From: a virus
Strand: one strand, 5' to 3'
DNA length: 64,000 bases
Virus record (IMG/VR): IMGVR_UViG_3300023174_003433
Coordinates: 32,001-96,000 of that record
The position numbers were made by a program, and so were the translations under genes. Shown here in pieces: positions 1-15,429 of the stretch (its first letter is position 1; every line of letters begins with the position of its first letter). Below the pieces are notes generated by a model. It was not told the DNA's origin and did not search any database. It saw only the letters and a program-made list of their open reading frames with translations.

Positions 1-497
1 TTAATTTTTTTTGAATCTGTGTTATTGTTTATCCAAATAGAGCCAAAACTAGGATTTTTTTGGCCAGTTCTTGTTCCTATCATTGATTTTTTTATATTTA
101 ACCTATGTTCTTTTGATTTTGGTTTTTTGTGTTTGTTTTTTGTTTCTTCTGAAAGTTTCCAAGTTTTGCCTTTGGAACCATTTGTTAATTTCCTAACTTT
201 CAAAAATTGATTTTTTTTAATTGTTTTTTCTTCTTCGGTTAAATTATTCCAAAATTCTTTACCTTTTTTAGATAAATGGTTTTTTATTGATTCTTGATTC
301 ATTATACCTTTAAGTATATCTTCTTTACCAATTAAACCGGCCAGTCCTTGCCAAGCATAATAATCTTGATATCTTCCTTGTTCTTCCCAAAGCAATTTAT
401 GAGCTTCGGCGTGTTCTTCAACAGTAAGTTCTATTAAGTTTGATGGATCATCAGTACCACCAGCGTGTTTTGGAATAATATGGTGTTTATGTTTCAT
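1..497 (-). mobile_element. Free-standing HNH homing endonuclease with NUMOD3-like basic C-terminal region (runs off left edge)
   Basis: Not in ORF track. Hand translation from ATG at 497: MKHKHHIIPKHAGGTDDPSNLIELTVEEHAEAHKLLW... (HH-IIP-x3-GG-x-D-x3-NL-x2-LT-x2-EH-x3-H signature), then KGKTWKLSEETKNK and GQKNPSFG motifs. Confidence 0.85.
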
Positions 498-498
498 A

Positions 499-1272
499 TC
501 AATTCATTAGAAATTCCAATGGCGCTCCGTATTCGGTTTGCATTTCGGTTTCCAGCTTCTCAATTTCACCTACCGCTTCTTCATAAATCTTATCACCATT
601 AAGTGTGACACCACCTGGTAACTGTAAGCCAGAAAACTTTTTGAGGTTATTTCCCCATGTTCGTTTAATTAAAGCGGTAGTATATTCTTTTAACCAACGG
701 TCATTCCACACACGATTATATGTTGTGGCATCAATACAAGCATAACATTCGGCAACTACAATTGTACCCGCTGGTGCTTCAGATGCTCCCCATGCCCAAT
801 CAATAAAGAGTTTTCCCATATGTCGTTGGAAACGAATAGGAACTTCTCCACTAAACAATAACTCTAGTGAACGTAAATGCTGTTGAGTTAAGGTATAATT
901 GACGTATGATGCGGAGGTGAAGTCGTAGAGTTCGTTTAGACGGAGTTGATACCGCAGGTCAAACATATTAATAGTTGCCTGAGAATCTTGAACTGGAAAA
1001 ATACGAGTAACGCCAACAATGTCCAAAGGAACATTGGCAGAATCTAACACATTGGTTAAATTCAAATATTGATTATTGACATCGGTATCCGTAATCCTTC
1101 GAATATAATAGATTTTTTGGAGACCATCAAAGTGGTAGTCTTGCCAATATTGAATGGCATCATCTATTCTATCTTCTAACTGGTCATCATCAATATTGAT
1201 TTCAATGACTGGAAAACCTAATCGTCTGAGGCAATAATCTTTGAGTGTTTGTCTACTAGTTACCGCTGGCAT
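499..1272 (-). CDS. gp13: Neck protein gp13
   Basis: LKDYCLRRLGFPVIEINIDDDQLEDRIDDA N-terminus and WGNNLKKFSGLQLPGGVTLNG C-terminus typical of T4-like gp13. Confidence 0.92.
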   Translation of the reverse strand: MPAVTSRQTLKDYCLRRLGFPVIEINIDDDQLEDRIDDAIQYWQDYHFDGLQKIYYIRRITDTDVNNQYLNLTNVLDSANVPLDIVGVTRIFPVQDSQATINMFDLRYQLRLNELYDFTSASYVNYTLTQQHLRSLELLFSGEVPIRFQRHMGKLFIDWAWGASEAPAGTIVVAECYACIDATTYNRVWNDRWLKEYTTALIKRTWGNNLKKFSGLQLPGGVTLNGDKIYEEAVGEIEKLETEMQTEYGAPLEFLMN

Positions 1273-1293
1273 ATTACCCTCCTATTATAGAGG

Positions 1294-1301
1294 TATTTAT
1301 A
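1294..1301 (-). promoter_or_regulatory. T4-type late promoter TATAAATA
   Basis: Exact TATAAATA about 20 nt upstream of gp13 start. Confidence 0.8.
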
Positions 1302-1312
1302 CCTTGTCCTGT

Positions 1313-2146
1313 TTATTGTATTCCAAGACTTTTCCTTATTTTGGTTGCGGAAATATCAGTAATTGATTTATCAAAAGACTCTTGTTCAATTTTATAACCT
1401 ACATCACGACCATAAGTAATATTTACAATGTTTGGTACCACCTGAATCTCATATTGACCTTGAAACAACGGATCCAAATCTCTACGGATGTATGATTTAA
1501 CTTGTTCAATGGCAAAAGGATTAGAACCTTGCCATCCTTGACAGTCACGGATTTGAATAACCACTTGACCAGTTTTGGCAATGGCTCGCTCAAATAAAGC
1601 TCGATGGCCTTCATGCCATGGTTGCCAACGACCTAACATCTGTACAGTTTCTTTCTGCCAGTCAAATGTTGGACGCCTACGATTCTCAATGATATGGTTA
1701 CCAATAAACTCAGCCCATTTTTCAGCATTTTGTTCTGTCACACGGAAGTCATATACTTCTGGTGGAATGAACGCTTTATTGGTATCTTCAAATCGACCTT
1801 TTTCAATTGTGTCCATCCAAATAGTCCAATCGGCTTTAAAGTTGTTTCTCATCTCAACCAATGGCGCCACAAAATCACAGATAACATAATCACCGCCAGC
1901 CTCTAAAGCAAACTGTGCCATTCTTAGAGATTGGCGAATACGACCAGCATCTGAGAAATCCCAATCATTATATTTTTTACGAACTTCATCAGCATTAAAC
2001 CAAGTGACTTGAGCATTAAAGCCTGTAATTGGCAACATCTCAGCAATATTATTCGTTGTACCGTTTTTTTCAAGGTATTTTTTTAAGGCTTCTGCCATAA
2101 ATGTTTTTCCAGAACCTGGTAATCCCATAATCAAAATCTTTTTCAT
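1313..2146 (-). CDS. cysC: Adenylylsulfate (APS) kinase-like domain fused to an HxGH nucleotidyltransferase domain
   Basis: P-loop GLPGSGKT, NADEVR, DFSDAGRIRQ, DFVAP as in APS kinase; C-terminal GRWQPWHEGH nucleotidyltransferase motif. Confidence 0.8.
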   Translation of the reverse strand: MKKILIMGLPGSGKTFMAEALKKYLEKNGTTNNIAEMLPITGFNAQVTWFNADEVRKKYNDWDFSDAGRIRQSLRMAQFALEAGGDYVICDFVAPLVEMRNNFKADWTIWMDTIEKGRFEDTNKAFIPPEVYDFRVTEQNAEKWAEFIGNHIIENRRRPTFDWQKETVQMLGRWQPWHEGHRALFERAIAKTGQVVIQIRDCQGWQGSNPFAIEQVKSYIRRDLDPLFQGQYEIQVVPNIVNITYGRDVGYKIEQESFDKSITDISATKIRKSLGIQ

Positions 2147-2156
2147 TTGTATTCCT

Positions 2157-2894
2157 TTATTGAGGTTTGCATAATAAATTATTTCCTACTACCTTATAAT
2201 CATATTCATACTGATCTAAAAATTGCTTGATATCATCTATAATAGTTTTTCTGTTGTCGCAGTGTTCCACAAATATAATAGGTAGGTGCTTTTTGATTGT
2301 ATTGGAGCCTCCAACTAAAACATCTAAGTCCATACCTTCTACATCTATCTTTAGCAGATGCACTTTAGGTATATTATAGTGTTCTAAAAACCAATCAATT
2401 GTGTGTATGTCAACAACGACTTTATTGTTTGTTTTTTCGGTAATAATATCTTCTACTAAACTAAAAGTACCAAAATCATTTTTTCTAAAGTAATTAGGTT
2501 CTTCAAATTCAATTTTAGTATTATCTTTACCTAATCCAATGTTGTATGGATATACATTATATAGATTGTTTATAGAAGCATTTCCACACAGCATTTTAAA
2601 CACTTCTCTTTGAGGCTCAAAAGAATATATTTTTCCTTGAGGAAAGGCTCTGGACATCCAAGTGGTAAACGTTCCTATATTGGCACCAATGTCAAATATT
2701 ATAGGTTCAGAATATTCTTTAATTGATTCATAACAATTGAATGCTTCAATCGTAGAAGTATTTCCATGATCTAATAACCATTGGCCATGACCAACTTGTT
2801 CACTATTACAATCAAATCGATTTACAATCATTAAACCGTGGTCACAACTCAGTAACACATTTCGGTGAACTTTATCACCTATATTAAAAACCAT
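2157..2894 (-). CDS. FkbM-family methyltransferase
   Basis: FDIGANIG, SFEPQ, LLKIDVEG motifs. Confidence 0.9.
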   Translation of the reverse strand: MVFNIGDKVHRNVLLSCDHGLMIVNRFDCNSEQVGHGQWLLDHGNTSTIEAFNCYESIKEYSEPIIFDIGANIGTFTTWMSRAFPQGKIYSFEPQREVFKMLCGNASINNLYNVYPYNIGLGKDNTKIEFEEPNYFRKNDFGTFSLVEDIITEKTNNKVVVDIHTIDWFLEHYNIPKVHLLKIDVEGMDLDVLVGGSNTIKKHLPIIFVEHCDNRKTIIDDIKQFLDQYEYDYKVVGNNLLCKPQ

Positions 2895-2895
2895 T

Positions 2896-3498
2896 CTATT
2901 CTTTCAACTTTTTAAAAGCCACTTGAAAAGAATCTGGTAAATGTATTAATTCTATTTTATGCCAATTACATTGTATAAACATCTCAATGCCCATTCTTGG
3001 AGAGAGTTGTACAGGAGCACTACCATGTTCATCAACAAGTTTCCAGCCTATAGAATCGTCACATAACATTACTCCGCCTACTGGCAGTAATCTCCAAGAT
3101 AGCATCATATCTTCTAGAACAGCAGCAGATGTATGGTCACCATCAACAAAAATAAATTCAGCTGTTTCTTTTTGATGAATCAACTCGACTAAAGCCTCAT
3201 AACTGTATTTGTTAATGTATGTTACATTGCCTACACACTTACTTAAATTATATTCAAACGTTCTTTTAATTGTTTTAAAATCAAAATTTGGATTATCATT
3301 TAATGTGGTGTGTGGATCAATGGCATATATTTTAAATTTATCATTATGAATTTTACCAAACTCTGAAACCCAAAATGTGGTTATTCCTTCAAAACAACCA
3401 ATTTCTATCATTGTGTTTGGTACACCAAACTTTTCAAATAAAAATTTAATATTCGTTTGAGTTCTTTCTCTACCCATATCGACTGTTGAAATATACAT
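2896..3498 (-). CDS. Class I SAM-dependent methyltransferase (Methyltransf_24-like)
   Basis: EIGCFEG, IDP, FIFVDGDH, GGVMLCDD motifs; start moved to ATG 3498 just after the upstream stop. Confidence 0.85.
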   Translation of the reverse strand: MYISTVDMGRERTQTNIKFLFEKFGVPNTMIEIGCFEGITTFWVSEFGKIHNDKFKIYAIDPHTTLNDNPNFDFKTIKRTFEYNLSKCVGNVTYINKYSYEALVELIHQKETAEFIFVDGDHTSAAVLEDMMLSWRLLPVGGVMLCDDSIGWKLVDEHGSAPVQLSPRMGIEMFIQCNWHKIELIHLPDSFQVAFKKLKE

Positions 3499-3499
3499 A

Positions 3500-4108
3500 T
3501 CAATTATTCTTTTTATGCCAATCAGCAAATCTTCCTGGCTTATGCACTCTGATAAAAATATTTACACTTTCACAGACATTCGCCATAGTATTTAAATTAA
3601 TGTCCATCTGTTTTGGTGCCAGCATACCATCTTGCTGTTGTTGTAACCAATAGCCAACCATATTGTAAGTCACATCATAAACTTCCAAATCTACGTCATG
3701 GTATAATCCAAATGTACTATCACTTAATTTTTTAGCAATAGATTCAAAATTTACTTTTTGGTCAAACATTTTAAAAGTTTTGGCAGTCAATGGCCTAACA
3801 TGAGTGTAATCGTCCCAAAACAAATCACACCGATGATGTGGTACATTGATAAACCATTCTGCTTGATCTGCACTTACTCGATACATTTCTTTAATAATAT
3901 TGGTAAAAACTTTTGGATCTTGACCTAAATGTTCCAAAACATTATCTGCTGTAATTTTTTCAAAGAAGTTATCTTCATATGGCCAAGGAGTTATTTCAAA
4001 ATCTAATACTTCATCAGGATTACATTTGGCTTCTACATCTACATTCCAATGGTCGTTTAATTTTTTAAATCCACAACCCATGTTTAGTTTTTTATTTTCT
4101 GGTGTCAT
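3500..4108 (-). CDS. Class I SAM-dependent methyltransferase (Methyltransf_11-like)
   Basis: KLNMGCG, NVD, VLEHL, EMYRV, DYTH motifs; start at ATG 4108 preceded by AAGGA. Confidence 0.8.
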   Translation of the reverse strand: MTPENKKLNMGCGFKKLNDHWNVDVEAKCNPDEVLDFEITPWPYEDNFFEKITADNVLEHLGQDPKVFTNIIKEMYRVSADQAEWFINVPHHRCDLFWDDYTHVRPLTAKTFKMFDQKVNFESIAKKLSDSTFGLYHDVDLEVYDVTYNMVGYWLQQQQDGMLAPKQMDINLNTMANVCESVNIFIRVHKPGRFADWHKKNN

Positions 4109-4122
4109 AATATATTCCTTTA

Positions 4123-4920
4123 TTAAATCCAAGCATTCCAAAATATTTCACGATTATACTGTTCGTAAATATCAAGTCCAAGATACTCTACACAATTAAC
4201 TGTGGTACGATCAAGTGATGGCTTAATCTTGTGTAAGTTAGGCAAACCAATTGCCAAATCATTATACACTTCTGTTTGAACAATCTTTTCAAAATCATGT
4301 TCAAACTTTGGTAGTTCTAAAAATTCATAGATACGTTTAGTTTGGCTTTTTGGACTATTGCAAAAACGATTGTAATCAATAAAAAGAAAACGATCCAAAT
4401 AACCCATTGTAATTGCATCTTTAATATTTCTATGAGATAATCCCATTGCGCCTTCTGGACCAGCATAGTAATAAGCTCTTGAAGCAATATTGGATCCTTC
4501 TCTTAAAGAAGAATCTGCTTTGGTAAAAAACAAAGGATTCTCTTTTCTAAGTTTTTCAAAAGAAGTTAAAATTTCGGCTGGGTTTCTAACACAAACAATA
4601 ATTTTAACTTTGCGATCCAAAATTGCTTCGACTTGTGGTAGTAGTGGAATCCATCCACGGTCTTTATCAACAATAATAGGCTTATCAATATGAGAATAAT
4701 ATCCCTGTAATACTGATTTTAAAACTCCAACTTTGGCATCTGTATTATTATATTCTTGATTTTGTTCCATACTAGACCAAGAAGCATTAATACTACCAAA
4801 TATAGAAGATAAAGAACTTACGGATTCTCCGTGAACTTCTGAATTTTGTTTGAGTATGTTTGTTATGAGAGTGGAACCTGATCTTGGGAGACCTGCCACA
4901 AAATGTATGGTTTTTTCCAT
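4123..4920 (-). CDS. Sulfotransferase
   Basis: 5'-PSB motif GLPRSGSTL, DK, 3'-PB motif VRNP..IL.S. Confidence 0.88.
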   Translation of the reverse strand: MEKTIHFVAGLPRSGSTLITNILKQNSEVHGESVSSLSSIFGSINASWSSMEQNQEYNNTDAKVGVLKSVLQGYYSHIDKPIIVDKDRGWIPLLPQVEAILDRKVKIIVCVRNPAEILTSFEKLRKENPLFFTKADSSLREGSNIASRAYYYAGPEGAMGLSHRNIKDAITMGYLDRFLFIDYNRFCNSPKSQTKRIYEFLELPKFEHDFEKIVQTEVYNDLAIGLPNLHKIKPSLDRTTVNCVEYLGLDIYEQYNREIFWNAWI

Positions 4921-4970
4921 GATTACCTTTCAGTTTAAAATTATAAAATCAAGATTTAACACTTGTTGTA

Positions 4971-4978
4971 TATTTATA
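4971..4978 (-). promoter_or_regulatory. T4-type late promoter TATAAATA
   Basis: Exact consensus about 50 nt upstream of the sulfotransferase start. Confidence 0.7.
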
Positions 4979-6035
4979 CGCTTATTTTTTCAGCTTTTTG
5001 TTTTTTAGTTTTTTGAGGAAAACGTTCTTTTAATTCATTAGAAACTTTTTGAAATGTATCTGTCCAATCTCCAAATTTAGTTTGCCTAAAAACTTTAGTG
5101 GTGTTTTGATACCAAGGACTATGATCTCCTCCATAAGCCCAAACATGATATGGTAACAATGGCACAATTACCCATGTGGGTTTACCCATTGCAGAAGCAA
5201 GATGAGCAATACTAGTACAAGAAGTAATAACTAAATCTAAATTAGCAATACATGCAGCTGTATCTTCCCAAGAAATTATTAAATGTTGAAGATCGGATAT
5301 TGCTTCAGGTAATTCTTTTACATCTGTATCTCTTTGCAAACTATAGAATTGTATATGAGGAAAATCTTTGTGTAAATTAATTAATTTTTCTGCAGGAAAA
5401 ATACGAAATTGCTGATGTTCAAAAAGAGGGCTACCACTCCAACGAATACCAACTTTTATTTTTTCTGTGTTTAACATTGTTTTCCAAAGATCGACACTTT
5501 CGTTTTTAGCAAAAATGTAAGGCTCGTTTGGTAAATTATCAAATTCATGTCCAAATAACCAGCTAGCACTAAATCCTGGAATCCAAAAATCATGATATGT
5601 TTGAGATACTTGGTCTAAAGTGATACATTCTTTAACACCAGGAATCCGTAGAAAGAGGGGGTGCAATAATTTTTCACAACACATAATACATTTACCGCCT
5701 CGTTTCCAAATTTCGGTGGCAAATCTAGCGTAAATCATTTGGTCGCCAAAACCACACTCCATATTTAAAATGACAGTTTTACCTTTTAAATCACTTTGAT
5801 CCCAAATTGGCTTAGTAGTGTTAATTTTACCACTACCATAAACTTTGAGTGCTCGTCCATTTTCAAGACATTGAAATCCTTCTTGTAATTTTCCTTGATT
5901 AATAAGAAACCAACCACGATTAAATTTTGCTTTTGGATCTGTAGGATCTAAAGCTTCCAATTCTTCAGCCAATTTCCAAGCTTCTTCAAATCTTCCTCTT
6001 ATCATCAAATTCAATTGCTGATCAATCATATGCAT
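4974..6035 (-). CDS. TPR-containing glycosyltransferase (GT9-like)
   Basis: N-terminal TPR; ECGFGDQMIYARF, KVGIRWSG, SLQ, DTAACIANLDLVITSCTSIAHLASAMGKPTW, SPWY, FRQ...GDW. Confidence 0.88.
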   Translation of the reverse strand: MHMIDQQLNLMIRGRFEEAWKLAEELEALDPTDPKAKFNRGWFLINQGKLQEGFQCLENGRALKVYGSGKINTTKPIWDQSDLKGKTVILNMECGFGDQMIYARFATEIWKRGGKCIMCCEKLLHPLFLRIPGVKECITLDQVSQTYHDFWIPGFSASWLFGHEFDNLPNEPYIFAKNESVDLWKTMLNTEKIKVGIRWSGSPLFEHQQFRIFPAEKLINLHKDFPHIQFYSLQRDTDVKELPEAISDLQHLIISWEDTAACIANLDLVITSCTSIAHLASAMGKPTWVIVPLLPYHVWAYGGDHSPWYQNTTKVFRQTKFGDWTDTFQKVSNELKERFPQKTKKQKAEKISV

Positions 6036-6067
6036 AATCTAAAACTCCTGTAAAATAATTATATAGA

Positions 6068-6074
6068 TATTTAG
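6068..6074 (-). promoter_or_regulatory. Late-promoter variant CTAAATA
   Basis: TAAATA core in the short gap about 33 nt upstream of the glycosyltransferase. Confidence 0.5.
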
Positions 6075-6083
6075 TAAAGCTTT

Positions 6084-9000
6084 TTATGAAATTCCTACTG
6101 TATGAGCATCACCACCAGCAGATACAGCAGTCCATGAGCTGGATCCTATTTGTACTGGACTGGATCTACTGGTAAGTGTACCATCTCCTAATCGGCCACT
6201 ACCATTATATCCCCACGTAAACAATGTACCACCAGAACGTATAGCTGCTGTATGTACACCACCAGCAGATACAGCAGTCCATGAGCTGGATCCTATTTGT
6301 ACTGGACTGGATTTACTGTTAATGGATCCACTTGTACCATCTCCTAATTGGCCTTGACCATTATATCCCCATGTAAACAAGGTACCACCAGAACGTATAG
6401 CTGCTGTATGATTACCACCAGCAGATACAGCAGTCCATGAGCTGGATCCTATTTGTACTGGACTGGATCTATTGATAAGTGTACCATCTCCTAATCGACC
6501 GACACTATTAGATCCCCATGTAAACAAGGTACCACCAGAACGAATAGCTGCTGTATGAATACTACCAGGACCAGCAGCCACAGCAGTCCATGAGCTGGAT
6601 CCTATTTGTACTGGACTGGATTTTTGAGTACCAAAACCACCAGTACCATCTCCTAATTGGCCATTACTATTAAGTCCCCACGTAAACAAAGTACCACCAG
6701 AACGAATAGCGACTGTGTGACTAAGACCACCAGCCACAGCAGTCCATGAGCTGGATCCTATTTGAACTGGACTGGATCTAGATGTGCTTGTACCATCTCC
6801 TAATTGGCCATATGTATTATTTCCCCATGTAAACAAGGTACCACCAGAACGAATAGCTGCTGTATGATCACGACCAGCACCTACAGCAGTCCATGAGCTG
6901 GATCCTATTTGAACTGGACTGGATCTACTAGTAGTTGTACCATCTCCTAATTGGCCAGCATTAACTCCCCATGTAAATAATCTTCCATCAGAACGAATAG
7001 CTGCTGTATGAGTACCACCAGCAGCCACAGCAGTCCATGAGCTGGATCCTATTAATAAGGGAGAAGGTAGAATAACCACAACATTATTGCCTACTGTTAT
7101 TGGACTGGATTTATTAGTTAATGATCCACCTGTACCATCTCCTAATTGGCCAGATTGATTATATCCCCATGTAAACAATATATTATCAGAACGAATAGCT
7201 GCTGTATGACCTCTACTTACGCTACTATTACCACCACCAGACACAGCAGTCCATGAGCTGGATCCTATTTGTATAGGACTGGATCTACTGACAATTGAAC
7301 TATTTCCTAATTGGCCTTGACCATTATATCCCCATGCAAACAGAGTACCACCAGAACGAATAGCTGCTGTATGCCTACCTCCAGCAGACACAGCAGTCCA
7401 GGAACTAGATCCTATTTGTACTGGCCTAGATTTAGCAACAGCTGTACCATCTCCTAATTGGCCACCAGTATTACCTCCCCATGTAAATAAGTAGCCATCA
7501 GAACGAATAGCTGCTGAATGAGATAAACCAGCAGTTACAACAGTCCATGACATAGATGCAAAATCGGATCCAATTTGTACTGGACTGGATTTACTGTTAA
7601 TGGCTCCACTTGTACCATCTCCTAATTGGCCATGAAAATTATATCCCCATGTAAATATTGTACCACCAGAACGTATAGCTGCTGTATGAGCATCACCACC
7701 AGACACAGCAGTCCATGAGCTGGATCCTATTTGTACTGGACTGGATCTATTGGTAAGTGTACCATCTCCTAATCGGCCATCACTTCTTTGAGAATTATTT
7801 CCCCATGTAAACAAATATCCATCAGAACGTATAGCTCCAGTATGATACCTACCAGCACCTACAGCAGTCCATGAGCTGGATCCTATTTGTACTGGACTGG
7901 ATTTGAGAGCAGTTGTACCATCTCCTAATTGGCCAGCACTATTAAATCCCCATGTAAATAGTGTACCACCGGAACGAATAGCTACTGCATGGTATTGGCC
8001 ACCAGCCACAGCAGTCCAAGAGCTAGATCCTATTTGTACTGGACTAGATTTAGAAACATTCGTACCATCTCCCAATTGGCCAAAAATACCTTGGCCCCAT
8101 GTAAACAACGTACCCCCAGAACGAATAGCTGTTGAATGCCGGCGCCCAGCAGCCACAGCAGTCCATGAACTAGATCCTATTTGAACTGGACTGGAGCTAC
8201 TAGTAGTTGTACCATCTCCTAATTGGCCATTATTATTATAACCCCATGTAAACAAGTAACCATCAGAACGAATAGCTGCTGTATGATCATTTACACTACC
8301 AGCAGCTACAGCAGTCCATGAGCTGGATCCTATTTGTACAGGACTGGAGCTACTAGTAGTTGTACCATCTCCTAACTGGCCATTGTTATTAAATCCCCAC
8401 GTAAATAATGTGCCACCAGATCGAATAGCTACTGTATGCTTAGCACCAGTACTCACAGCAGTCCATGAACTGGATCCAATTTGAACTGGACTGGATCTAG
8501 AAGTGGTTGTACCATCTCCTAAACATCCAGGATTATTATAACCCCATGTAAATAAATATCCATCAGAACGAATAGCTGCTACATGCGCATAACCAGTAGA
8601 CACAACAGTCCAACTCGCAGAACTTGCAATTACAACTGGACTTGATTGCACTATATTAATGAATCCTATTTGTACAGGACTGGATCTATTGGTAAGTGTA
8701 CTATCTCCCACTTGGCCCGCAGTATTAATTCCCCATGTAAATAATAAATTATCAGAACGAATAGCTCCCGCATGATAACCACCAGTACTCACAGCAGTCC
8801 ATGAGCTGGATCCTATTTGTACAGGACTGGAGCTACTAGTAGTTGTACCATCTCCTAACTGGCCACCGCTATTAAATCCCCACGTAAATAATGTGCCACC
8901 AGATCGAATAGCTGCTGTGAAAGCTGCGCCAGCATTTATTACAGTCCAGGAACTAGATCCTATTTGAATCGGACTGGATTTGCTATTAGCATCACCGGAT

Positions 9001-11450
9001 GTACTATCACCTATTTGTCCTCTGTAATTACCTCCCCATGTAAATAAGGTACCACCAGAACGAATAGCTGCTGTATGAGAACCACCAGCAGATACAGCAG
9101 TCCATGAGCTGGATCCTATTTGAACTGGACTGGATAGTGAAACAAGATTATTTCCAACCGTTACTGGACTGCTTTGCCTGAACCGTGTGCCAAAACTAAT
9201 TTGTCCTAATTGGCCATAATTATTAATTCCCCATGTAAATAAGGCACTATAAAAACCACTAGAACGAACAGCTGCTGTATAATATCGGCCAGCAGACACA
9301 GCAGTCCATGAACTAGATCCTATTTGTACTGGACTGGATTTATCAGCAGTTGTACCATCTCCCAATTGGCCTTGGGCATTTCGACCCCATGTAAACAAAG
9401 TACCACCAGAACGAATAGCTGTTGTATGATCGTTACCACCAGACACAGCAGTCCATGAGCTGGATCCTATTTGAACTGGACTGGATCTAGATGTGCTTGT
9501 ACCATCTCCTAATCGACCTTGGCCATTAGATCCCCATGTAAACAAGTAACCATCAGAACGAATAGCTGCTGTATGATAAGCACCAGCATTTACAGCAGTC
9601 CATGAACTAGATCCTATTTGAACCGGACTGGATTTAGCAACAGCTGTACCATCTCCTAATTGGCCATAATTATTTTGGCCCCATGTAAATAATAAATTAT
9701 CAGAACGTATAGCAATTCCATGTCGAGCACCAGCATCTACAACAGTCCATGAGCTGGATCCTATTTGTACAGGACTGGATCTATTGGTGGTACCACCATC
9801 TCCTAACTGACCAGTACTATTATATCCCCATGTAAACAAGGTACCACCAGAACGAATAGCTGCTGTATGAGATAAACCAGCAGTTACAACAGTCCAAGAG
9901 CTGGATCCAATTTGAACTGGACTGGACCTATTAAAACCAGAAGTCCCATCACCCACTTGTCCTCTGTAATTACCTCCCCATGCAAACAAATATCCATCAG
10001 AACGAATAGCTGCTGTATGAGTACCACCAGCAGCCACAGCAGTCCAAGAGCTGGATCCAATTTGAACTGGACTAGATTTACCAACAATTGTACTATCTCC
10101 TAATTGGCCTTGGGTATTTCGACCCCATGTAAATAATAAATTATCAGAACGAATAGCTGCTGTATGGTAACCACCTACAGACACAACAGTCCAGCTAGAT
10201 AAATTTGTTAGTGACTCATTTCCAATTTGGCCCGCACTTCCAAGACCCCATGTAAACAAGTATCCAATATTATTAATAGCTGCTGTATGAGTACCACCAG
10301 CACTTACAGCAGTCCATGAGCTGGATCCTATTTGAACTGGACTAGATTTATCAGCAGTTGTACCATCTCCTAATTGGCCTTGAAGATTATATCCCCATGT
10401 AAATAAGGTACCACCAGAACGAATAGCAGTTGTATGAAAAAAACCAGCATCTACAACAGTCCATGAGCTGGATCCTATTTGTACAGGACTGGATCTATTG
10501 GTAGTTGTATTATCTCCTAATCGACCGTTTCCATTACCTCCCCATGTGAACAAGGTACCACCAGAACGAATAGCAACTGTATGAACATAACCAGCACTCA
10601 CAGCAGTCCATGAGCTAGAGCCTATTTGTACTGGACTGGATCTAGTGGTAGTTGTACTATCTCCTAATTGACCATAATTATTTCGTCCCCATGTAAATAA
10701 TAAATTATCGGAACGAATAGCAGCTGTATGAGAACCATTAACAGACACAACAGTCCAGCTAAGCAAAGCTGTTGTATCTCCTTGCCCCAACTGGCCAGAA
10801 CCATTAAGTCCCCATGTAAATAAGGTACCACCAGAACGAACAGCCATTGTATGAAGAGCACCAGCAGCTACAGCAGTCCATGAGCTGGATCCTATTTGTA
10901 TTGGACTGGATTTATTGGTAAGTGTACCATCTCCTAATTGGCCTTGACCATTATATCCCCATGTAAACAAGTAACCATCAGAACGAATAGCTGCTGTATG
11001 ATTACCACCAGCAGCCACAGCAGTCCATGAACTGGATCCTATTTGTACTGGACTAGATTTATTGAAAGTTGTACTATCTCCTAATTTGCCATATTGATTA
11101 AATCCCCATGTGAACAAAGTACCACCAGAACGAAGAGCAGCTGTATGTCTAAATCCAGCAGACACAGCAGTCCATGAGCTGGATCCAATTTGAACTGGAC
11201 TGGATCTAGTGGTAGTTGTATTATCACCTAATACGCCATTATTATATCCCCATGTAAACAAGTAACCATCAGAACGAATAGCTGCTGTATGAGAACCACC
11301 AGCACTTACAGCAGTCCAACTGGATAAAGGTGTTGTTACAGTTGTTCCTAACTGGCCATAAGCATTATTTCCCCATGTGTATAAAAATTTATTCTCGGCT
11401 GGAGCAGCTGCAGAAGCACCTTTAGCTAAAAGTTGTTCAATGAATAACAT
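6084..11450 (-). CDS. Giant RCC1-repeat beta-propeller protein (35 blades), probable virion adhesin
   Basis: 35 (T/A)WG-xN-xx-GQLG repeats of about 49-51 aa, consensus WTAVSAGGxHTAAIRSGGTLFTWGxNxxGQLGDGTTxxxSSPVQIGSSS. Confidence 0.92.
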   Translation of the reverse strand: MLFIEQLLAKGASAAAPAENKFLYTWGNNAYGQLGTTVTTPLSSWTAVSAGGSHTAAIRSDGYLFTWGYNNGVLGDNTTTTRSSPVQIGSSSWTAVSAGFRHTAALRSGGTLFTWGFNQYGKLGDSTTFNKSSPVQIGSSSWTAVAAGGNHTAAIRSDGYLFTWGYNGQGQLGDGTLTNKSSPIQIGSSSWTAVAAGALHTMAVRSGGTLFTWGLNGSGQLGQGDTTALLSWTVVSVNGSHTAAIRSDNLLFTWGRNNYGQLGDSTTTTRSSPVQIGSSSWTAVSAGYVHTVAIRSGGTLFTWGGNGNGRLGDNTTTNRSSPVQIGSSSWTVVDAGFFHTTAIRSGGTLFTWGYNLQGQLGDGTTADKSSPVQIGSSSWTAVSAGGTHTAAINNIGYLFTWGLGSAGQIGNESLTNLSSWTVVSVGGYHTAAIRSDNLLFTWGRNTQGQLGDSTIVGKSSPVQIGSSSWTAVAAGGTHTAAIRSDGYLFAWGGNYRGQVGDGTSGFNRSSPVQIGSSSWTVVTAGLSHTAAIRSGGTLFTWGYNSTGQLGDGGTTNRSSPVQIGSSSWTVVDAGARHGIAIRSDNLLFTWGQNNYGQLGDGTAVAKSSPVQIGSSSWTAVNAGAYHTAAIRSDGYLFTWGSNGQGRLGDGTSTSRSSPVQIGSSSWTAVSGGNDHTTAIRSGGTLFTWGRNAQGQLGDGTTADKSSPVQIGSSSWTAVSAGRYYTAAVRSSGFYSALFTWGINNYGQLGQISFGTRFRQSSPVTVGNNLVSLSSPVQIGSSSWTAVSAGGSHTAAIRSGGTLFTWGGNYRGQIGDSTSGDANSKSSPIQIGSSSWTVINAGAAFTAAIRSGGTLFTWGFNSGGQLGDGTTTSSSSPVQIGSSSWTAVSTGGYHAGAIRSDNLLFTWGINTAGQVGDSTLTNRSSPVQIGFINIVQSSPVVIASSASWTVVSTGYAHVAAIRSDGYLFTWGYNNPGCLGDGTTTSRSSPVQIGSSSWTAVSTGAKHTVAIRSGGTLFTWGFNNNGQLGDGTTTSSSSPVQIGSSSWTAVAAGSVNDHTAAIRSDGYLFTWGYNNNGQLGDGTTTSSSSPVQIGSSSWTAVAAGRRHSTAIRSGGTLFTWGQGIFGQLGDGTNVSKSSPVQIGSSSWTAVAGGQYHAVAIRSGGTLFTWGFNSAGQLGDGTTALKSSPVQIGSSSWTAVGAGRYHTGAIRSDGYLFTWGNNSQRSDGRLGDGTLTNRSSPVQIGSSSWTAVSGGDAHTAAIRSGGTIFTWGYNFHGQLGDGTSGAINSKSSPVQIGSDFASMSWTVVTAGLSHSAAIRSDGYLFTWGGNTGGQLGDGTAVAKSRPVQIGSSSWTAVSAGGRHTAAIRSGGTLFAWGYNGQGQLGNSSIVSRSSPIQIGSSSWTAVSGGGNSSVSRGHTAAIRSDNILFTWGYNQSGQLGDGTGGSLTNKSSPITVGNNVVVILPSPLLIGSSSWTAVAAGGTHTAAIRSDGRLFTWGVNAGQLGDGTTTSRSSPVQIGSSSWTAVGAGRDHTAAIRSGGTLFTWGNNTYGQLGDGTSTSRSSPVQIGSSSWTAVAGGLSHTVAIRSGGTLFTWGLNSNGQLGDGTGGFGTQKSSPVQIGSSSWTAVAAGPGSIHTAAIRSGGTLFTWGSNSVGRLGDGTLINRSSPVQIGSSSWTAVSAGGNHTAAIRSGGTLFTWGYNGQGQLGDGTSGSINSKSSPVQIGSSSWTAVSAGGVHTAAIRSGGTLFTWGYNGSGRLGDGTLTSRSSPVQIGSSSWTAVSAGGDAHTVGIS
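6110..11330. repeat. Coding tandem repeat (about 147-156 bp period) underlying the RCC1 blades
   Basis: Near-identical block GCAGTCCATGAGCTGGATCCTATTTG(T/A)ACTGGACTGGAT recurs in most blades. Confidence 0.9.
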
Positions 11451-11945
11451 TTAATTTTCTAATGATGGCCAATTGACTTGAGCAATATTCACAACCTCAT
11501 TTTCTGAATATACTTGTATAATATCTCTTAGAGCTTGTCGATATATAATCCATTTATTTTTGGTGTTTTCATCAAATAAATTTTGTACATCTTGTAATTG
11601 AGTCCAATCAGAACTAACTAACAATTCATTTCTTTTTTTTCTTAGTTCTTCTATAAATCTATATTTTAAAGTAGAGAATTCTTCAACAGGTTCTGGTTGT
11701 CTTTCAGTTATAATAATACTTTCTAAAACATCATTCTCTCTAATCTCATAATTATATCCACTTACATAATGGGTTAAATCATTCCACGTTTCATTTTGTT
11801 TAGTTACAGGATACCAACCTACAGATTTTAAAAAAGGCAAATCATCAGCAGCCAAATTTAGTCCGCTTACATTTCTCCAATTATTAGGTAGTAAGTCATA
11901 CTGACCTGTAATTTCATTATTTTCTATGTGTACCCAATTTGCCAT
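11451..11945 (-). CDS. Phage tail fibre assembly chaperone-like protein
   Basis: LRKKRNELLVSSDWTQLQD...WIIYRQALRDI...VNWP motif. Confidence 0.8.
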   Translation of the reverse strand: MANWVHIENNEITGQYDLLPNNWRNVSGLNLAADDLPFLKSVGWYPVTKQNETWNDLTHYVSGYNYEIRENDVLESIIITERQPEPVEEFSTLKYRFIEELRKKRNELLVSSDWTQLQDVQNLFDENTKNKWIIYRQALRDIIQVYSENEVVNIAQVNWPSLEN

Positions 11946-11957
11946 TTTTAATATCCG

Positions 11958-12518
11958 TTATTTGCTGTCTACCATAGAGGCCACACCTCGCCAATTTAAA
12001 CCGCCGTCATCTGTGATAAATGTTAACACATCAACACCGGCCGCTGTAAGAGATGGAGCTGTACCTCCAGGCCATTTGACTGCCGAAGGCCAAGTTAATG
12101 CTGCAGAGCCTCCATTGGTAAGCTCTAAAACAAAACCGATGGCAGCCGGCGGTGCAATTGGATTAGAAAATACCCAAGTTGTAACACCCGTTACAGTTGC
12201 TGATACATAATTACCTAAAGTTAAATCTATGGTTCTAGTACCAGAACCAGCACCCAATACATTATGTGTTGTACCATATTGAGTAATTGCTCTGTTACTG
12301 TTTATGTATGGAGAACCCAATATAGAATATGAATTGGCTGTTATGATACCAGTATGCGAACTTAATAAAACTTCTACGTTGGTGACTTGTGTGCCACCAA
12401 CAGGTAAAGTTTTGAAAAGCCGATTTGATGTTGGGTCATACACCTCATCACCAAGCCGTTGGCCGTTTAATGAGGTGTTTGCCGATACTACATGCCGAAT
12501 ATAATCCCGAGAGGACAT
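11958..12518 (-). CDS. Tail-fibre-associated adaptor protein
   Basis: C-terminal LTWPSAVKWPGGTAPSLTAAGVDVLTF module common in phage fibre genes; start MSSRDY at 12518 with GGAGG RBS. Confidence 0.6.
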   Translation of the reverse strand: MSSRDYIRHVVSANTSLNGQRLGDEVYDPTSNRLFKTLPVGGTQVTNVEVLLSSHTGIITANSYSILGSPYINSNRAITQYGTTHNVLGAGSGTRTIDLTLGNYVSATVTGVTTWVFSNPIAPPAAIGFVLELTNGGSAALTWPSAVKWPGGTAPSLTAAGVDVLTFITDDGGLNWRGVASMVDSK

Positions 12519-12528
12519 TTTACCTCCC

Positions 12529-15429
12529 TTAAGCTTGTGCCTCTGACCAACTAAAACGAGCGGCAACGTTAGCTGCACCACCTAATGGAGTAATACACAA
12601 AGTTAAAATATCTGGACCATCAGGATAAATTTGCAATGCTGTGTTTGATACGGCATTGTTTACACCGCCACCTAAAATACTATTACCAATATCACGCAAC
12701 CTTACTAAATCTTGAGAATCTGTATTATTTGCTGGTGTAAAGCCGGTCCAAATTGATTCACCACCATTAATTACAGCTGCTGGTCCATGAATAGCATACT
12801 GTGCTAAAGAAGAACCTCCAACTGGCAGATAAGTTCCTGAAGAAACACGACCATTCAAAACCAATTCAGCACGAACAGCATTATTAGAAGCAAAAATACC
12901 TATTGAAGCGGGAGCTAATTGCATACGGTTAATAATTTCACGTTGTCCTAAAACACCAGCAGTACCATTGTCAATTGATGGTGCTAGGCGAACACTAAAC
13001 ACCGGATAACGTATTGCTGGGCTTGGATATGTTTGTTGAGTATTTTGTCCAAAATTAAAAATAAATGATTTATCATCATCATAACGGCCGTCCATAATTA
13101 CAGAAGAACCCCAGTGACTAACTGTTGATGCTTGGCCAGGTGAATAAGATTCAACACGAACAGGAGCTGTACCACCAGGATTGACTGCTGTAGCACCAGT
13201 AACGGTAAATGTTGTTGCTGTGCTAGTACCTAAAGCAATACCACCAGTATTTGCTGAGTTGCGTTGTAGTCCTGTAAATGTTGTTGCTGTTTTACCTGTG
13301 TAGTAAATATATTCAATTGCACCACCAGTATCAGCAGCTGCATAAACTAATAATACACCAACAGGTGGGAAGAATGTTGTATCATTAACTGTCATTGATG
13401 TTGCACCAGCAGCCAATGTAGCAGTTAAGAATGTTGTAACAGGAATTGTATTTGTTTCGTAACGAGCAGGCAAGTTACCAGAACGCATATATGCTTCTGT
13501 GTTGATGTTGTTGTTTGGCATACGATGGCAATAAATTACTTCTCCACGAGTGTTCTTAAATCCGAAACGAACAGCACCTGCACCATACCAAGAATAGTCG
13601 GCATAGAACATTTGCATTCTTGTTAAATCTAGATTGAATAAACTTGCACCAGTGCCATCACACCGGTCAATATTCCATTGCGATTGAGGTACACGTAAAT
13701 CAACTGTTTTACTAATTTGGCAAGCAGACGATGTTACGCCACGATACTCAGGATAAATGTACATTAAAGTATCAGATACAATTGTTTGTACCAGATATGA
13801 TTGGCCACGAATGACAATATAATCATTTGGTTTTAGTTGTTGACTGAAACGAGTGCTTGTACCAAATACAGCACCGTTACCAGAAACAACAGAACCAACA
13901 CCAGATAATTGTAATGTGCTTGAACGTCTAACTGCATATAATGTTTGGCCATCATATTCAAAGAAGAAACCGTTTTGTGAATCAAACATACCAACACGAT
14001 TAGCAGCACCATACCAAGAATATGGTGAAACATTTAGTGGAAATCCAGATGCTGTTGCAGATGATGGTACTGAGTTTGCTGTGTAAGTAAACTGTAAAGG
14101 AGTATTTGCACCAGTCACGGTAAACAATCCATTGTATGCCGTTTCTGTTGCACCTGAAATTAAAATTTGTGAGTTGGCACCAAGACCATGAGCGAACTTG
14201 GTTGTTACTGTACAAGTCGTACCAGAACTTGTAATACCATCAGTTGCAACTGCTGGTTTTAGAATAGAACCGGTTGAAAATTGAATACCTTTACCGGACT
14301 GATAACGGAATTGACGGCGTGTCTGACGAATAACTTGATAACCATGGAATGGAGATACGTTAGAGAATTGAACACCGCCATCAAATGGACGATGCTGAAC
14401 ATAACCTAATGGACGTGGATAAATTGACGCATTGGCGGGAGCTGTAATTGTTCCTGTTGCGGCACAAGAGAATGTAAATATGTTAGTATTAGGTGTATTA
14501 GCAACAACCCAAGAACTGTTAATAAGTCCTGTATTGCCTGTGGCACCAGTAACATAAAATCCATCACCGACTCGAAAGCCATGAGCATTGGCTGTTGTGA
14601 TTGTACCAACTACACCGTTCAAAACGATGGTACCACCTGCTGCACCTGAAGAAGGTAACGCAGCGCCAGTATAATATGCACCAATAAATAAAACTGTTTT
14701 ATTAGAATCAAATAAAGCAGCTGCAGGAGTGTTTATTACTGTATATGTAAAGTTGGCATTAGGAGAAACGCCTTCAACAATCCACCATCCATCAGCGTTA
14801 GCATTATCTAAAGTACCTTGTACAAAAATAGGAGTGCCAGCAGTAATACCTGTTGTATTATTAATTGCTACTGTTACTGTTTTACCGGATGCTGTAACGT
14901 TAGTAATTTGATATGAACCAGCAGAACCAACGTTAGTAGAACCAACAAATGCTACGTTAGCAGAAATGTTTGAAATACTTTGTGTAGGATCATAAAAAGC
15001 ACCAGGACGATTGTTAAGAAGATTAATTGATTCCCATTTTGTTGGCTGAGGACCATATTCAAAGTCTGTATCAATCAATGCCTGTGGAGTAGATACACGC
15101 ATTTTGTCCACAGGATCACGTAAAACTTCATTTGGAGTAATTTCTTGATAAGTTTCTTCTGTAAGAATAGATAACTTATCTGTCGAGTTCATCGAGCCAG
15201 TAGCAAAAGCTAATACAATAGTGGTTGTTTCTAAACCACTAACTGTATTGGACGAATTGGTAAATGAAGTTGCTTGAAGTGCTGGATCGGAGAAATTATA
15301 AATGACTGTGCCAGAAGTTGTATTGGTAATCAATAACAACTGCTCTCTACGAATGTTTTTACCAGATACCGTAACGGTTCTTGTTGACGGGGTAAATGTG
15401 TAACTTTCTAATATAACATGCTTTGCCAT
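12529..15429 (-). CDS. Large virion structural/fibre protein with repeated small beta domains
   Basis: Three related segments (TVTVAINNTTGITAG, TITTANAHGFRVGD, TVTTKFAHGLGAN); S/T/G/N-rich; lies in the fibre cluster. Confidence 0.6.
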   Translation of the reverse strand: MAKHVILESYTFTPSTRTVTVSGKNIRREQLLLITNTTSGTVIYNFSDPALQATSFTNSSNTVSGLETTTIVLAFATGSMNSTDKLSILTEETYQEITPNEVLRDPVDKMRVSTPQALIDTDFEYGPQPTKWESINLLNNRPGAFYDPTQSISNISANVAFVGSTNVGSAGSYQITNVTASGKTVTVAINNTTGITAGTPIFVQGTLDNANADGWWIVEGVSPNANFTYTVINTPAAALFDSNKTVLFIGAYYTGAALPSSGAAGGTIVLNGVVGTITTANAHGFRVGDGFYVTGATGNTGLINSSWVVANTPNTNIFTFSCAATGTITAPANASIYPRPLGYVQHRPFDGGVQFSNVSPFHGYQVIRQTRRQFRYQSGKGIQFSTGSILKPAVATDGITSSGTTCTVTTKFAHGLGANSQILISGATETAYNGLFTVTGANTPLQFTYTANSVPSSATASGFPLNVSPYSWYGAANRVGMFDSQNGFFFEYDGQTLYAVRRSSTLQLSGVGSVVSGNGAVFGTSTRFSQQLKPNDYIVIRGQSYLVQTIVSDTLMYIYPEYRGVTSSACQISKTVDLRVPQSQWNIDRCDGTGASLFNLDLTRMQMFYADYSWYGAGAVRFGFKNTRGEVIYCHRMPNNNINTEAYMRSGNLPARYETNTIPVTTFLTATLAAGATSMTVNDTTFFPPVGVLLVYAAADTGGAIEYIYYTGKTATTFTGLQRNSANTGGIALGTSTATTFTVTGATAVNPGGTAPVRVESYSPGQASTVSHWGSSVIMDGRYDDDKSFIFNFGQNTQQTYPSPAIRYPVFSVRLAPSIDNGTAGVLGQREIINRMQLAPASIGIFASNNAVRAELVLNGRVSSGTYLPVGGSSLAQYAIHGPAAVINGGESIWTGFTPANNTDSQDLVRLRDIGNSILGGGVNNAVSNTALQIYPDGPDILTLCITPLGGAANVAARFSWSEAQA

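Follow-up and report, generated by a model that had tools for sequence, protein, structure and literature searches.

How does a single chain of 35 RCC1 blades fold? The question is raised by a viral window of 64,000 nt (the whole stretch of DNA that was analysed; positions 32,001 to 96,000 of IMG/VR record IMGVR_UViG_3300023174_003433), in which one open reading frame (ORF), P0001, spans positions 6084-11450 of the minus strand, reads from 11450 to 6084 and encodes 1788 amino acids (aa). The source record has 117,727 bases, is 69% complete according to CheckV, and contains RCC1 repeats in this gene only. We propose that P0001 probably folds as nested seven-bladed beta-propellers, with the 35 blades forming five rings that are joined by domain insertion, not end to end. 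The two inner levels of nesting are supported by structure prediction, and nesting of the whole chain is supported by a strong counting rule in related proteins. By counting blades, we infer a ring made of blades 1-4 and 26-28, a side branch of blades 19-25, and an outermost closure of blades 0 and 29-34.

P0001 contains exactly 35 [TA]WG motifs by regular-expression (regex) count, numbered here 0-34. It belongs to the RCC1 repeat family, with profile scores above the curated Pfam cut-offs: PF00415 matches 34 RCC1 stretches (1073.9 bits, cut-off 21.7) and PF25390, the RCC1-like domain, scores 1481.1 bits (cut-off 150). A Pfam match to NfeD came without a separate stretch and was taken as spurious. 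The canonical unit is 49 aa, the size of most WG-to-WG units, and its strands run in the order A (WTAVSAG), B (HTAAIRS), C (LFTWG) and D (SSPVQIG). Strand C is followed by an x-N-x-x-GQLG loop, and an SSS turn joins D to the next A. A hidden Markov model (HMM) of 32 positions, covering the A-B-C-loop part and built from 34 P0001 blades, finds 34 full blades and two partial matches at the termini. The N-terminal partial match (residues 22-35, HMM positions 19-32) is strand C only; the C-terminal one (residues 1773-1787, HMM positions 1-14) is strands A-B only. The blades are ~70% identical all against all. DNA repeats within the gene have a period of 147 nt and 60-93% identity, with no long near-identical repeats. 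Misassembly was considered and rejected as unlikely, because the DNA repeats have diverged and because an independent metagenome viral contig, L002, carries an 85%-identical RCC1 protein of 1782 aa with an identical junction string.

Seven units of P0001 are irregular: three lack the D strand, three have two of them, and one has a lengthened D-to-A turn. The three units that follow WG0, WG4 and WG8 have only 41 aa and are without the SSPVQIG strand. Those after WG15, WG18 and WG28 are 65, 63 and 66 aa long, and each contains a second S-P-x-x-I strand behind a 6-7-residue linker; these extra strands are called orphan D strands below, and are marked D8', D4' and D0' after the blades to which they are assigned. 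The unit after WG25 is 56 aa long, with SDFASMS replacing the usual turn and lengthening it by 4 residues. Every other D-to-A turn is SSS, except for SSAS between D4' and A19. An earlier note on this DNA, made from the letters without database searches, had reported 35 motifs and seven irregular junctions. The regex count and the unit lengths bear out both numbers, and its approximate coordinates for all the junctions convert correctly to residues (residue r corresponds to window positions 11453-3r down to 11451-3r).

What arrangement do these junctions describe? When a missing D strand is read as an opening bracket and a doubled D strand as a closing bracket, the three missing-D and three double-D junctions pair in last-in-first-out order. 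The resulting sets are {9-15}, {5-8,16-18}, {1-4,19-28} and {0,29-34 plus the terminal half-blade}, with 7, 7, 14 and 7 blades, and the set of 14 splits at the odd 25/26 linker into {19-25} and {1-4,26-28}. The sets of seven in the earlier note are arithmetically correct, the 14 being 7 + 7. The topology that we propose is 0 ( 1-4 ( 5-8 ( 9-15 ) 16-18 ) [19-25] 26-28 ) 29-34 + C-terminal A-B. At three places, the chain would exit a blade after strand C via a 9-residue linker, make a whole propeller, or one that is itself interrupted, and come back via the 6-7-residue linker to provide the missing outer D strand. In the outermost blade, the C strand of the N-terminus (residues ~22-27) would come together with a D strand from residues ~1462-1468 and with the last 16 residues. 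The double linkers at the insertions would hold the rings nearer one another than in a string of beads. The parts of the chain, in window coordinates with strand, are as follows; pLDDT is the predicted local distance difference test score of the AlphaFold2 (AF2) model described below.

6084-11450 (-): whole ORF P0001, 1788 aa, 35 RCC1 blades (regex count, Pfam)
11346-11450 (-): residues 1-35, conserved helix motif of the N-terminus (MLFIEQLL...) followed by blade 0 strand C and its GQLG loop, with no A, B or D (partial HMM match)
11319-11345 (-): residues 36-44, TTVTTPLSS, first opening junction, blade 0 without D strand (41-aa unit; gap of 9 aa against the usual 17)
10785-11318 (-): residues 45-222, blades 1-4, first part of the proposed level-1 propeller, blade 4 without D (set given by the bracket parse)
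10758-10784 (-): residues 223-231, QGDTTALLS, second opening junction (pLDDT <50)
10221-10757 (-): residues 232-410, blades 5-8, first part of the predicted level-2 propeller, blade 8 without D (two-chain prediction with blades 16-18)
10194-10220 (-): residues 411-419, NESLTNLSS, third opening junction (pLDDT <50; 0/9 residues differ from L002)
9153-10193 (-): residues 420-766, blades 9-15, predicted innermost, contiguous seven-bladed propeller (AF2 model aligned to UVR8 4dnv_A)
9114-9152 (-): residues 767-779, NNLVSLSSPVQIG, linker and orphan D strand predicted for blade 8 (double-D unit; two-chain contacts; 0/13 differ from L002)
8664-9113 (-): residues 780-929, blades 16-18, second part of the predicted level-2 propeller (two-chain prediction, in which the ring closes)
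8625-8663 (-): residues 930-942, FINIVQSSPVVIA, linker and orphan D strand, assigned to blade 4 (double-D unit; bracket order only)
7569-8624 (-): residues 943-1294, blades 19-25, proposed side-branch propeller between blades 4 and 26 (counting, 14 = 7 + 7, and the unique linker after D25)
7548-7568 (-): residues 1295-1301, SDFASMS, the only markedly lengthened D-to-A turn (unit lengths; model)
7089-7547 (-): residues 1302-1454, blades 26-28, proposed second part of the level-1 propeller (bracket parse)
7047-7088 (-): residues 1455-1468, NNVVVILPSPLLIG, linker and orphan D strand, assigned to blade 0 (double-D unit; bracket order; 1/14 differs from L002)
6144-7046 (-): residues 1469-1769, blades 29-34 of the proposed outermost propeller (unit lengths, blade HMM)
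6087-6143 (-): residues 1770-1788, C-terminal half-blade (A, B), proposed partner of the N-terminal C0 and of the orphan D strand in residues 1455-1468 (partial HMM match)

Structure prediction supports the innermost ring. An AF2 model of P0001 residues 188-1347 (window 7410-10889, minus strand), made with a 50-row alignment, has a mean pLDDT of 81.2 and a predicted template modelling score (pTM) of 0.48. UVR8 (4dnv_A) aligns to this model over 347 of 370 residues (Z 55.6, root-mean-square deviation (rmsd) 1.4, 32% identity), and the aligned range, 228..581 of the model, is residues 415-768, that is, exactly blades 9-15; a wider PDB fold search gave the same range. In the model, these seven four-stranded blades close one ring. 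A complete ring at blades 9-15 excludes sequential rings 0-6, 7-13 and 14-20; sequential rings were the outcome that the earlier note had named as contrary to its own reading, and it is this outcome that the ring contradicts. We also modelled the whole of a homolog, P0111 (1093 aa, 21 blades), with a 50-row alignment (mean pLDDT 85.1, pTM 0.43). UVR8 (6xzl) aligns to it over 350 of 373 residues (Z 55.3, rmsd 1.7), in the range 228..604, which is blades 5-11. This ring sits exactly between the missing-D (217-233) and double-D (601-617) junctions of P0111. The equivalents of the C-terminal A-B strands are also modelled in P0111, with block-mean pLDDT of 79-86. The junction linkers in the P0001 model have pLDDT <50, and short helical turns flank D25. 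A BFVD search returned full-length RCC1 phage homologs, the best being A0A6J5KPF3 (template modelling score 0.33), without aligned ranges.

The next level outwards was addressed by a two-chain prediction (ESMFold2) of residues 226-414 (blades 5-8) with residues 767-930 (the orphan strand and blades 16-18). Three runs scored 0.92, 0.92 and 0.93, against 0.02 for the best of 3 controls. Of 80 solved complexes, 58 reach the calibration mark for such scores, as do 2 of 110 mismatched pairs; these counts are a rough guide here since a custom alignment was used. The partner pLDDT was 93, the runs shared at least 92% of their contacts, and there were 230-237 confident contacts. The contacts of lowest error join L398/F399 of strand C8 to Q777/I778 of the orphan strand, with orphan residues 771-778 lying along strand C of blade 8. 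The orphan strand after blade 15 is thus predicted to be the D strand of blade 8. Contacts of A8 and B8 with A16, and of A5 with blade 18, give a predicted closed ring, 5-6-7-8-16-17-18. The earlier note had expected predicted structures to show the nested rings: {9-15} appears in the AF2 model and {5-8,16-18} in the two-chain prediction, while {1-4,26-28}, {19-25} and {0,29-34} come from counting only.

Is the number seven a property of P0001 alone? We parsed 221 proteins, namely P0001 and the best listed matches of two homolog searches, with the blade HMM. Gap lengths between blade cores peak at 17-18 aa, with smaller, distinct peaks at 5-10 aa and ~31 aa, and 110 of the 221 proteins contain one or more missing-D junctions. 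When the 220 relatives (P0001 excluded) were parsed with a stack, 159 closed, unambiguous sets resulted; sets with a gap >80 aa or with one of 46-54 aa ("X") were not counted, nor were closes that lacked an open. The number of blades is a multiple of 7 in 82 of these 159 sets; when junction classes were shuffled within each protein, 1000 times, the mean was 8.1 and the maximum 18. Exactly 7 blades are found in 24 of the 43 sets that enclose a child, and are therefore discontinuous (in shuffles, multiples of 7 average 2.8 and never exceed 8), and in 57 of the 116 childless sets. At the level of sequence, the junction pattern is not chance, because the short and long gap modes recur in the 221 proteins and because sevens are far commoner than in shuffles.

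Individual relatives differ by 7-blade units, as the earlier note had anticipated for homologs, with 49 blades (7 x 7) in L004, 28 in L011, 21 in P0111 and 14 in P0189. L004, in which the flanking gene order is that of the window, encodes an RCC1 protein of 2455 aa. Clean missing-D units of 40-43 aa occur six times in this protein, and double-D units of 63-65 aa also six times. The parse divides its blades into seven sets of exactly seven, nested to five levels, and level 1 encloses two children. The L011 protein (1483 aa) parses into four sets of seven, P0111 and P0128 (both ~1100 aa) into three sets each, and P0189 (796 aa) into two. P0025 has five sets of seven, five deep, by eye only and with two divergent WG-less units counted as blades; its automatic parse fails. 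Regular arrays also turn up, including P0083, with a long linker at every seventh blade, and a 14-blade protein (700 aa) from Synechococcus phage BUCT-ZZ01 (ON615601.1), so the parser separates tandem from nested forms. Between P0001 and L002 (L002 positions 2513-7861), 14.7% of amino acids differ and indels are only of 1-3 aa, in loops. The N-terminus (1/35 residues differ), the third opening junction, D8' and D0' are conserved; D4' (4/13) and the 25/26 linker (4/7) are not.

Several observations weigh against nested propellers in P0001. The blade-by-blade identity matrix has no 7-blade periodicity (mean 0.67-0.72 at every lag) and neither favours nor disfavours any blade set; blades 5 and 9 are its only mutual best matches (0.88). 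Both pTM values, 0.43 for P0111 and 0.48 for P0001, are low. The P0111 model shows no strand for three segments, the N-terminal C0 (pLDDT 46-64) and the two orphan linkers (<50). In P0001, D8' is a strand at residues 771-777 with pLDDT of only 37-51, and D4' is unstructured, its parent ring being truncated in the modelled construct. Rings were placed by the aligned ranges of fold searches, which capture contiguous rings only, and the best 50 rows of each search all fall on the innermost ring, bar a few two-propeller chains (GH74 6p2m/3a0f/7kn8, Elp2 5m2n, PorZ 5m11) that align at rmsd 14.7-18.8 and are uninformative on topology. The two-chain pass may stem from likeness to solved RCC1 propellers, and any 4+3 blades of P0001 would probably pass too; given that likeness, the result shows feasibility and the placement of the orphan strand, not specificity. 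Among relatives, 77 of the 159 sets have a blade number that is not divisible by 7, and the length classifier fails to parse L003, L005/6, L008 and L010. Part of the 77 is classifier error; loop insertions are taken as double-D junctions (P0123, P0135), and long missing-D linkers are taken as normal (L003).

The alternative that survives best, though we think it unlikely, accepts the inner levels of nesting and divides the 14 level-1 blades otherwise, for example into {1-4,19-21} and a tandem ring {22-28}. Blades 19-28 carry no missing-D or double-D mark inside them, only the turn at 25/26 that is longer by 4 residues. That turn is poorly conserved in L002, as noted above; it is nonetheless the sole D-to-A departure from SSS in P0001, bar the one-residue SSAS at D4'-A19. 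The fold searches of the P0001 model, with their best 50 rows on the innermost ring, did not locate a ring at 19-25. Against such a division, blade 19 starts with WTVVS, as do the first blades of rings 5-8 and 9-15, and L004 has a marked set of seven as the second child of its level 1.

We judge it very improbable that only blades 9-15, and perhaps 19-25, fold as rings, with the outer arcs of 3-4 blades either left unclosed or paired with those of other molecules in a blade-swapped oligomer. In P0001, 4+3 and 1+6 blades each sum to 7, and the same exact number recurs in the child-enclosing sets of relatives (24/43); blades 5-8 and 16-18 are predicted as one ring, with 230-237 confident contacts; and two orphan D strands are conserved in L002 (0/13 and 1/14 differences). 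On the side of blade swapping, the outer closures are of low confidence in the AF2 models, and propeller fragments can assemble as oligomers. The text of a study of amplified propellers states that oligomerisation may be the way in which propellers short of blades fold (PMC9218822). Least credible of all is a set of five sequential propellers (0-6, 7-13, 14-20, 21-27, 28-34), or a bead string in which unit lengths are loop variation. Tandem RCC1 arrays with no irregular junctions do exist (the BUCT-ZZ01 14-blade protein, P0203, P0118 and P0083). Against such a reading of P0001, the modelled ring 9-15 straddles two sequential rings, with a similar outcome in P0111; it is specifically the D strand that is absent from the short units and doubled in the long ones; and bracket sets of seven are about ten times commoner than in shuffles.

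Has a nested propeller of this kind been described before? UVR8, RCC1, the RCC1-like domains (RLDs) of HERC2, RPGR and BLIP-II share the repeat family and the seven-bladed fold with P0001. A PDB sequence search (E up to 1e-10) returned 31 chains, all named RCC1-family and 370-536 aa long; none of these 31 has several RCC1 propellers, whereas five are proposed in P0001. The RLD of UBR5 forms an RCC1-like propeller from a discontinuous stretch of chain (~252-264 residues align across the chain range 35/41..873), and its inserts are reportedly non-propeller domains; UBR5 is a eukaryotic E3 ligase, whereas P0001 is a phage protein. In DDB1, CPSF160 and SF3B3, the middle propeller BPB is said to be flanked by parts of BPC, a one-level insertion; these proteins are reportedly WD40-like and eukaryotic, with one level only. 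The BUCT-ZZ01 protein and the metagenomic P0083 have the same repeats as P0001, but no missing-D or double-D junctions. RCC1 domains also occur in proteins of Pseudomonas phages PollyC and Littlefix that are tail fibres by annotation, a matter of names only; unlike P0001, these have a T7-type N-terminal fibre domain and few propellers.

The closest parallel is Trm734, a yeast WD40 triple propeller. In its published description, strand c7 of propeller BPA passes to BPB, BPA being without d7; the chain provides d7 of BPA after completing BPB, and the N-terminus starts with strand d7 of BPC (PMC6847430). P0001, as we propose it, resembles this protein in the insertion between blade strands c and d and in the split closure by a terminal strand. 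Its junctions and predictions point to the same event, in which a parent blade loses its d strand and regains it after the inserted propeller. The differences are that Trm734 has WD40 repeats, one level of insertion and three diverged propellers and is a tRNA-methyltransferase partner, whereas P0001 has RCC1 repeats with blades ~70% identical, lies in a phage tail region, and would have three levels (five in L004 by sequence parse). Pfam gives only RCC1-family models for P0001, with no sign of WD40 repeats or of homology to Trm734 or DDB1; P0001 is thus a topological analogue of Trm734, not a member of its family. A literature search, supplements aside, for nested or inserted RCC1 propellers and for RCC1 in phages found no description of nested RCC1 propellers. 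The text of PMC9218822 treats multi-propeller arrays as consecutive rings, and neither "nested" nor "inserted" occurs in that text. The earlier suggestion that the architecture is undescribed therefore holds for nested RCC1 propellers and fails for one-level insertion between c and d, which is published for Trm734; what is new here is the RCC1 family, the recursive depth and the phage tail setting.

Might this family of phage proteins grow by a general rule, the recursive insertion of a seven-bladed RCC1 ring after strand C and before strand D in a blade of the preceding ring? We regard the arguments as evenly balanced. If so, the rule would yield 2 to 7 rings, with up to 5 levels by sequence parse, and tree-shaped chains; a single blade could unite strands >1700 residues apart, and chains would have to fold inside out. 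If the parse is right, P0001 and its relatives are natural proteins with domains nested three to five deep and strictly seven blades per level, an extreme case of non-local chain topology. This would bear on the folding of large repeat proteins, whose outer rings here could not close before the whole chain is made, and on how repeat arrays "count"; according to the text of PMC9218822, on amplified propellers, a counting system does not exist. A nested RCC1 chain would also be a ready-made scaffold idea for protein design. More broadly, P0001 would mark a widespread, little-studied class of tail-region proteins in aquatic myoviruses.

The modules of the three missing-D junctions of P0001 (window 10113-10259, 10677-10823 and 11238-11384) form a separate DNA repeat family with 74-76% identity, and the copies are spaced 561-564 nt apart. 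Because the junction modules form their own family at this spacing, the sequence suggests that a "junction plus four blades" unit was duplicated twice in the gene. At its N-terminus, P0001 has a conserved M-L-L-I-E-Q-L-L-like motif (residues 1-20, window 11391-11450) that is present in 15 of the 221 proteins. Its carriers mostly have nested patterns, and a helix is modelled at 2-13 in homolog P0111. This motif may be an attachment element.

What might P0001 do? The window contains T4-type baseplate wedge and tail genes, and its gp6-like protein shares ~40% identity with its counterparts in Pelagibacter and Methylophilales myophages and ~36% with the cyanomyophage ones. A 207-aa gene upstream of the RCC1 gene matches tail-fibre PHROGs, and P0001 itself has a weak match (2.9e-11, without a separate stretch) to phrog_20500, "tail protein". 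P0001 lies in the tail-fibre module, directly next to a fibre assembly chaperone-like gene:

11451-11945 (-): upstream 164-aa gene, tail-fibre assembly/tail assembly chaperone-like (PF16778, E 3.4e-13; PHROGs 4912, 4697, 8716)

This upstream gene order is retained in L002, L004 and phage BUCT-ZZ01. In BUCT-ZZ01 the order is tail fibre, small ORF, RCC1 protein, as in the window, and the RCC1 protein likewise has a blade count that is a multiple of 7. Because of the tail-fibre neighbours, the BUCT-ZZ01 gene order and the RCC1 domains in annotated tail fibres, we lean towards the view that P0001 is an adhesin or receptor-binding protein carried in the tail-fibre region of the virion, with five faces that would bind ligand. 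The virion location and the binding are putative. The five propeller faces would carry variable loops. Nearly all the differences between P0001 and L002 are at loop positions 8-9, 11-12, 27-28, 30 and 36-39 of the 49-aa unit; the framework of W, AIRS motif, LF-WG, G-LG and SSP-QIGSSS is invariant. Since the differences sit in loops, the variation suggests host recognition. If both the fold and this role are right, nested chains may form doubly tethered "bushes" on the tail that bind receptors multivalently. The founding RCC1 activity, guanine-nucleotide exchange on Ran-type GTPases, is not expected of a protein from a phage structural module.

RCC1 genes of other shapes occur among the relatives. 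The same open frame (ORF 82-12873, at least 4264 aa) is found in L005, L007, L014 and L015; it has 81 RCC1 blade matches, reaches the edge of the stored locus, and has a junction string that the length classifier does not parse into sevens. L011 carries two large RCC1 ORFs in tandem on one viral contig, 1993-6444 (1483 aa) and 6491-9700 (1069 aa), and the first starts with a ~75-aa non-RCC1 N-terminal domain that it has in common with P0189.

Three further very large structural ORFs lie in the module of the window, at 26756-33040 (2094 aa), 20084-24574 (1496 aa) and 12529-15429 (966 aa), all on the minus strand; they match PHROGs annotated as unknown function or "virion structural protein". 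Downstream of P0001, a row of genes is kept in order and ORF length in the window (1313-6035, minus strand), L002 (7910-13632) and L004 (9640-15182). It consists of a 353-aa gene with a weak TPR match and a 265-aa sulfotransferase (PF00685, E 9.5e-16), followed by ORFs of 213, 210, 245, ~277-291 and 257 aa. Since this cassette is kept in both L002 and L004, it travels with the RCC1 gene.

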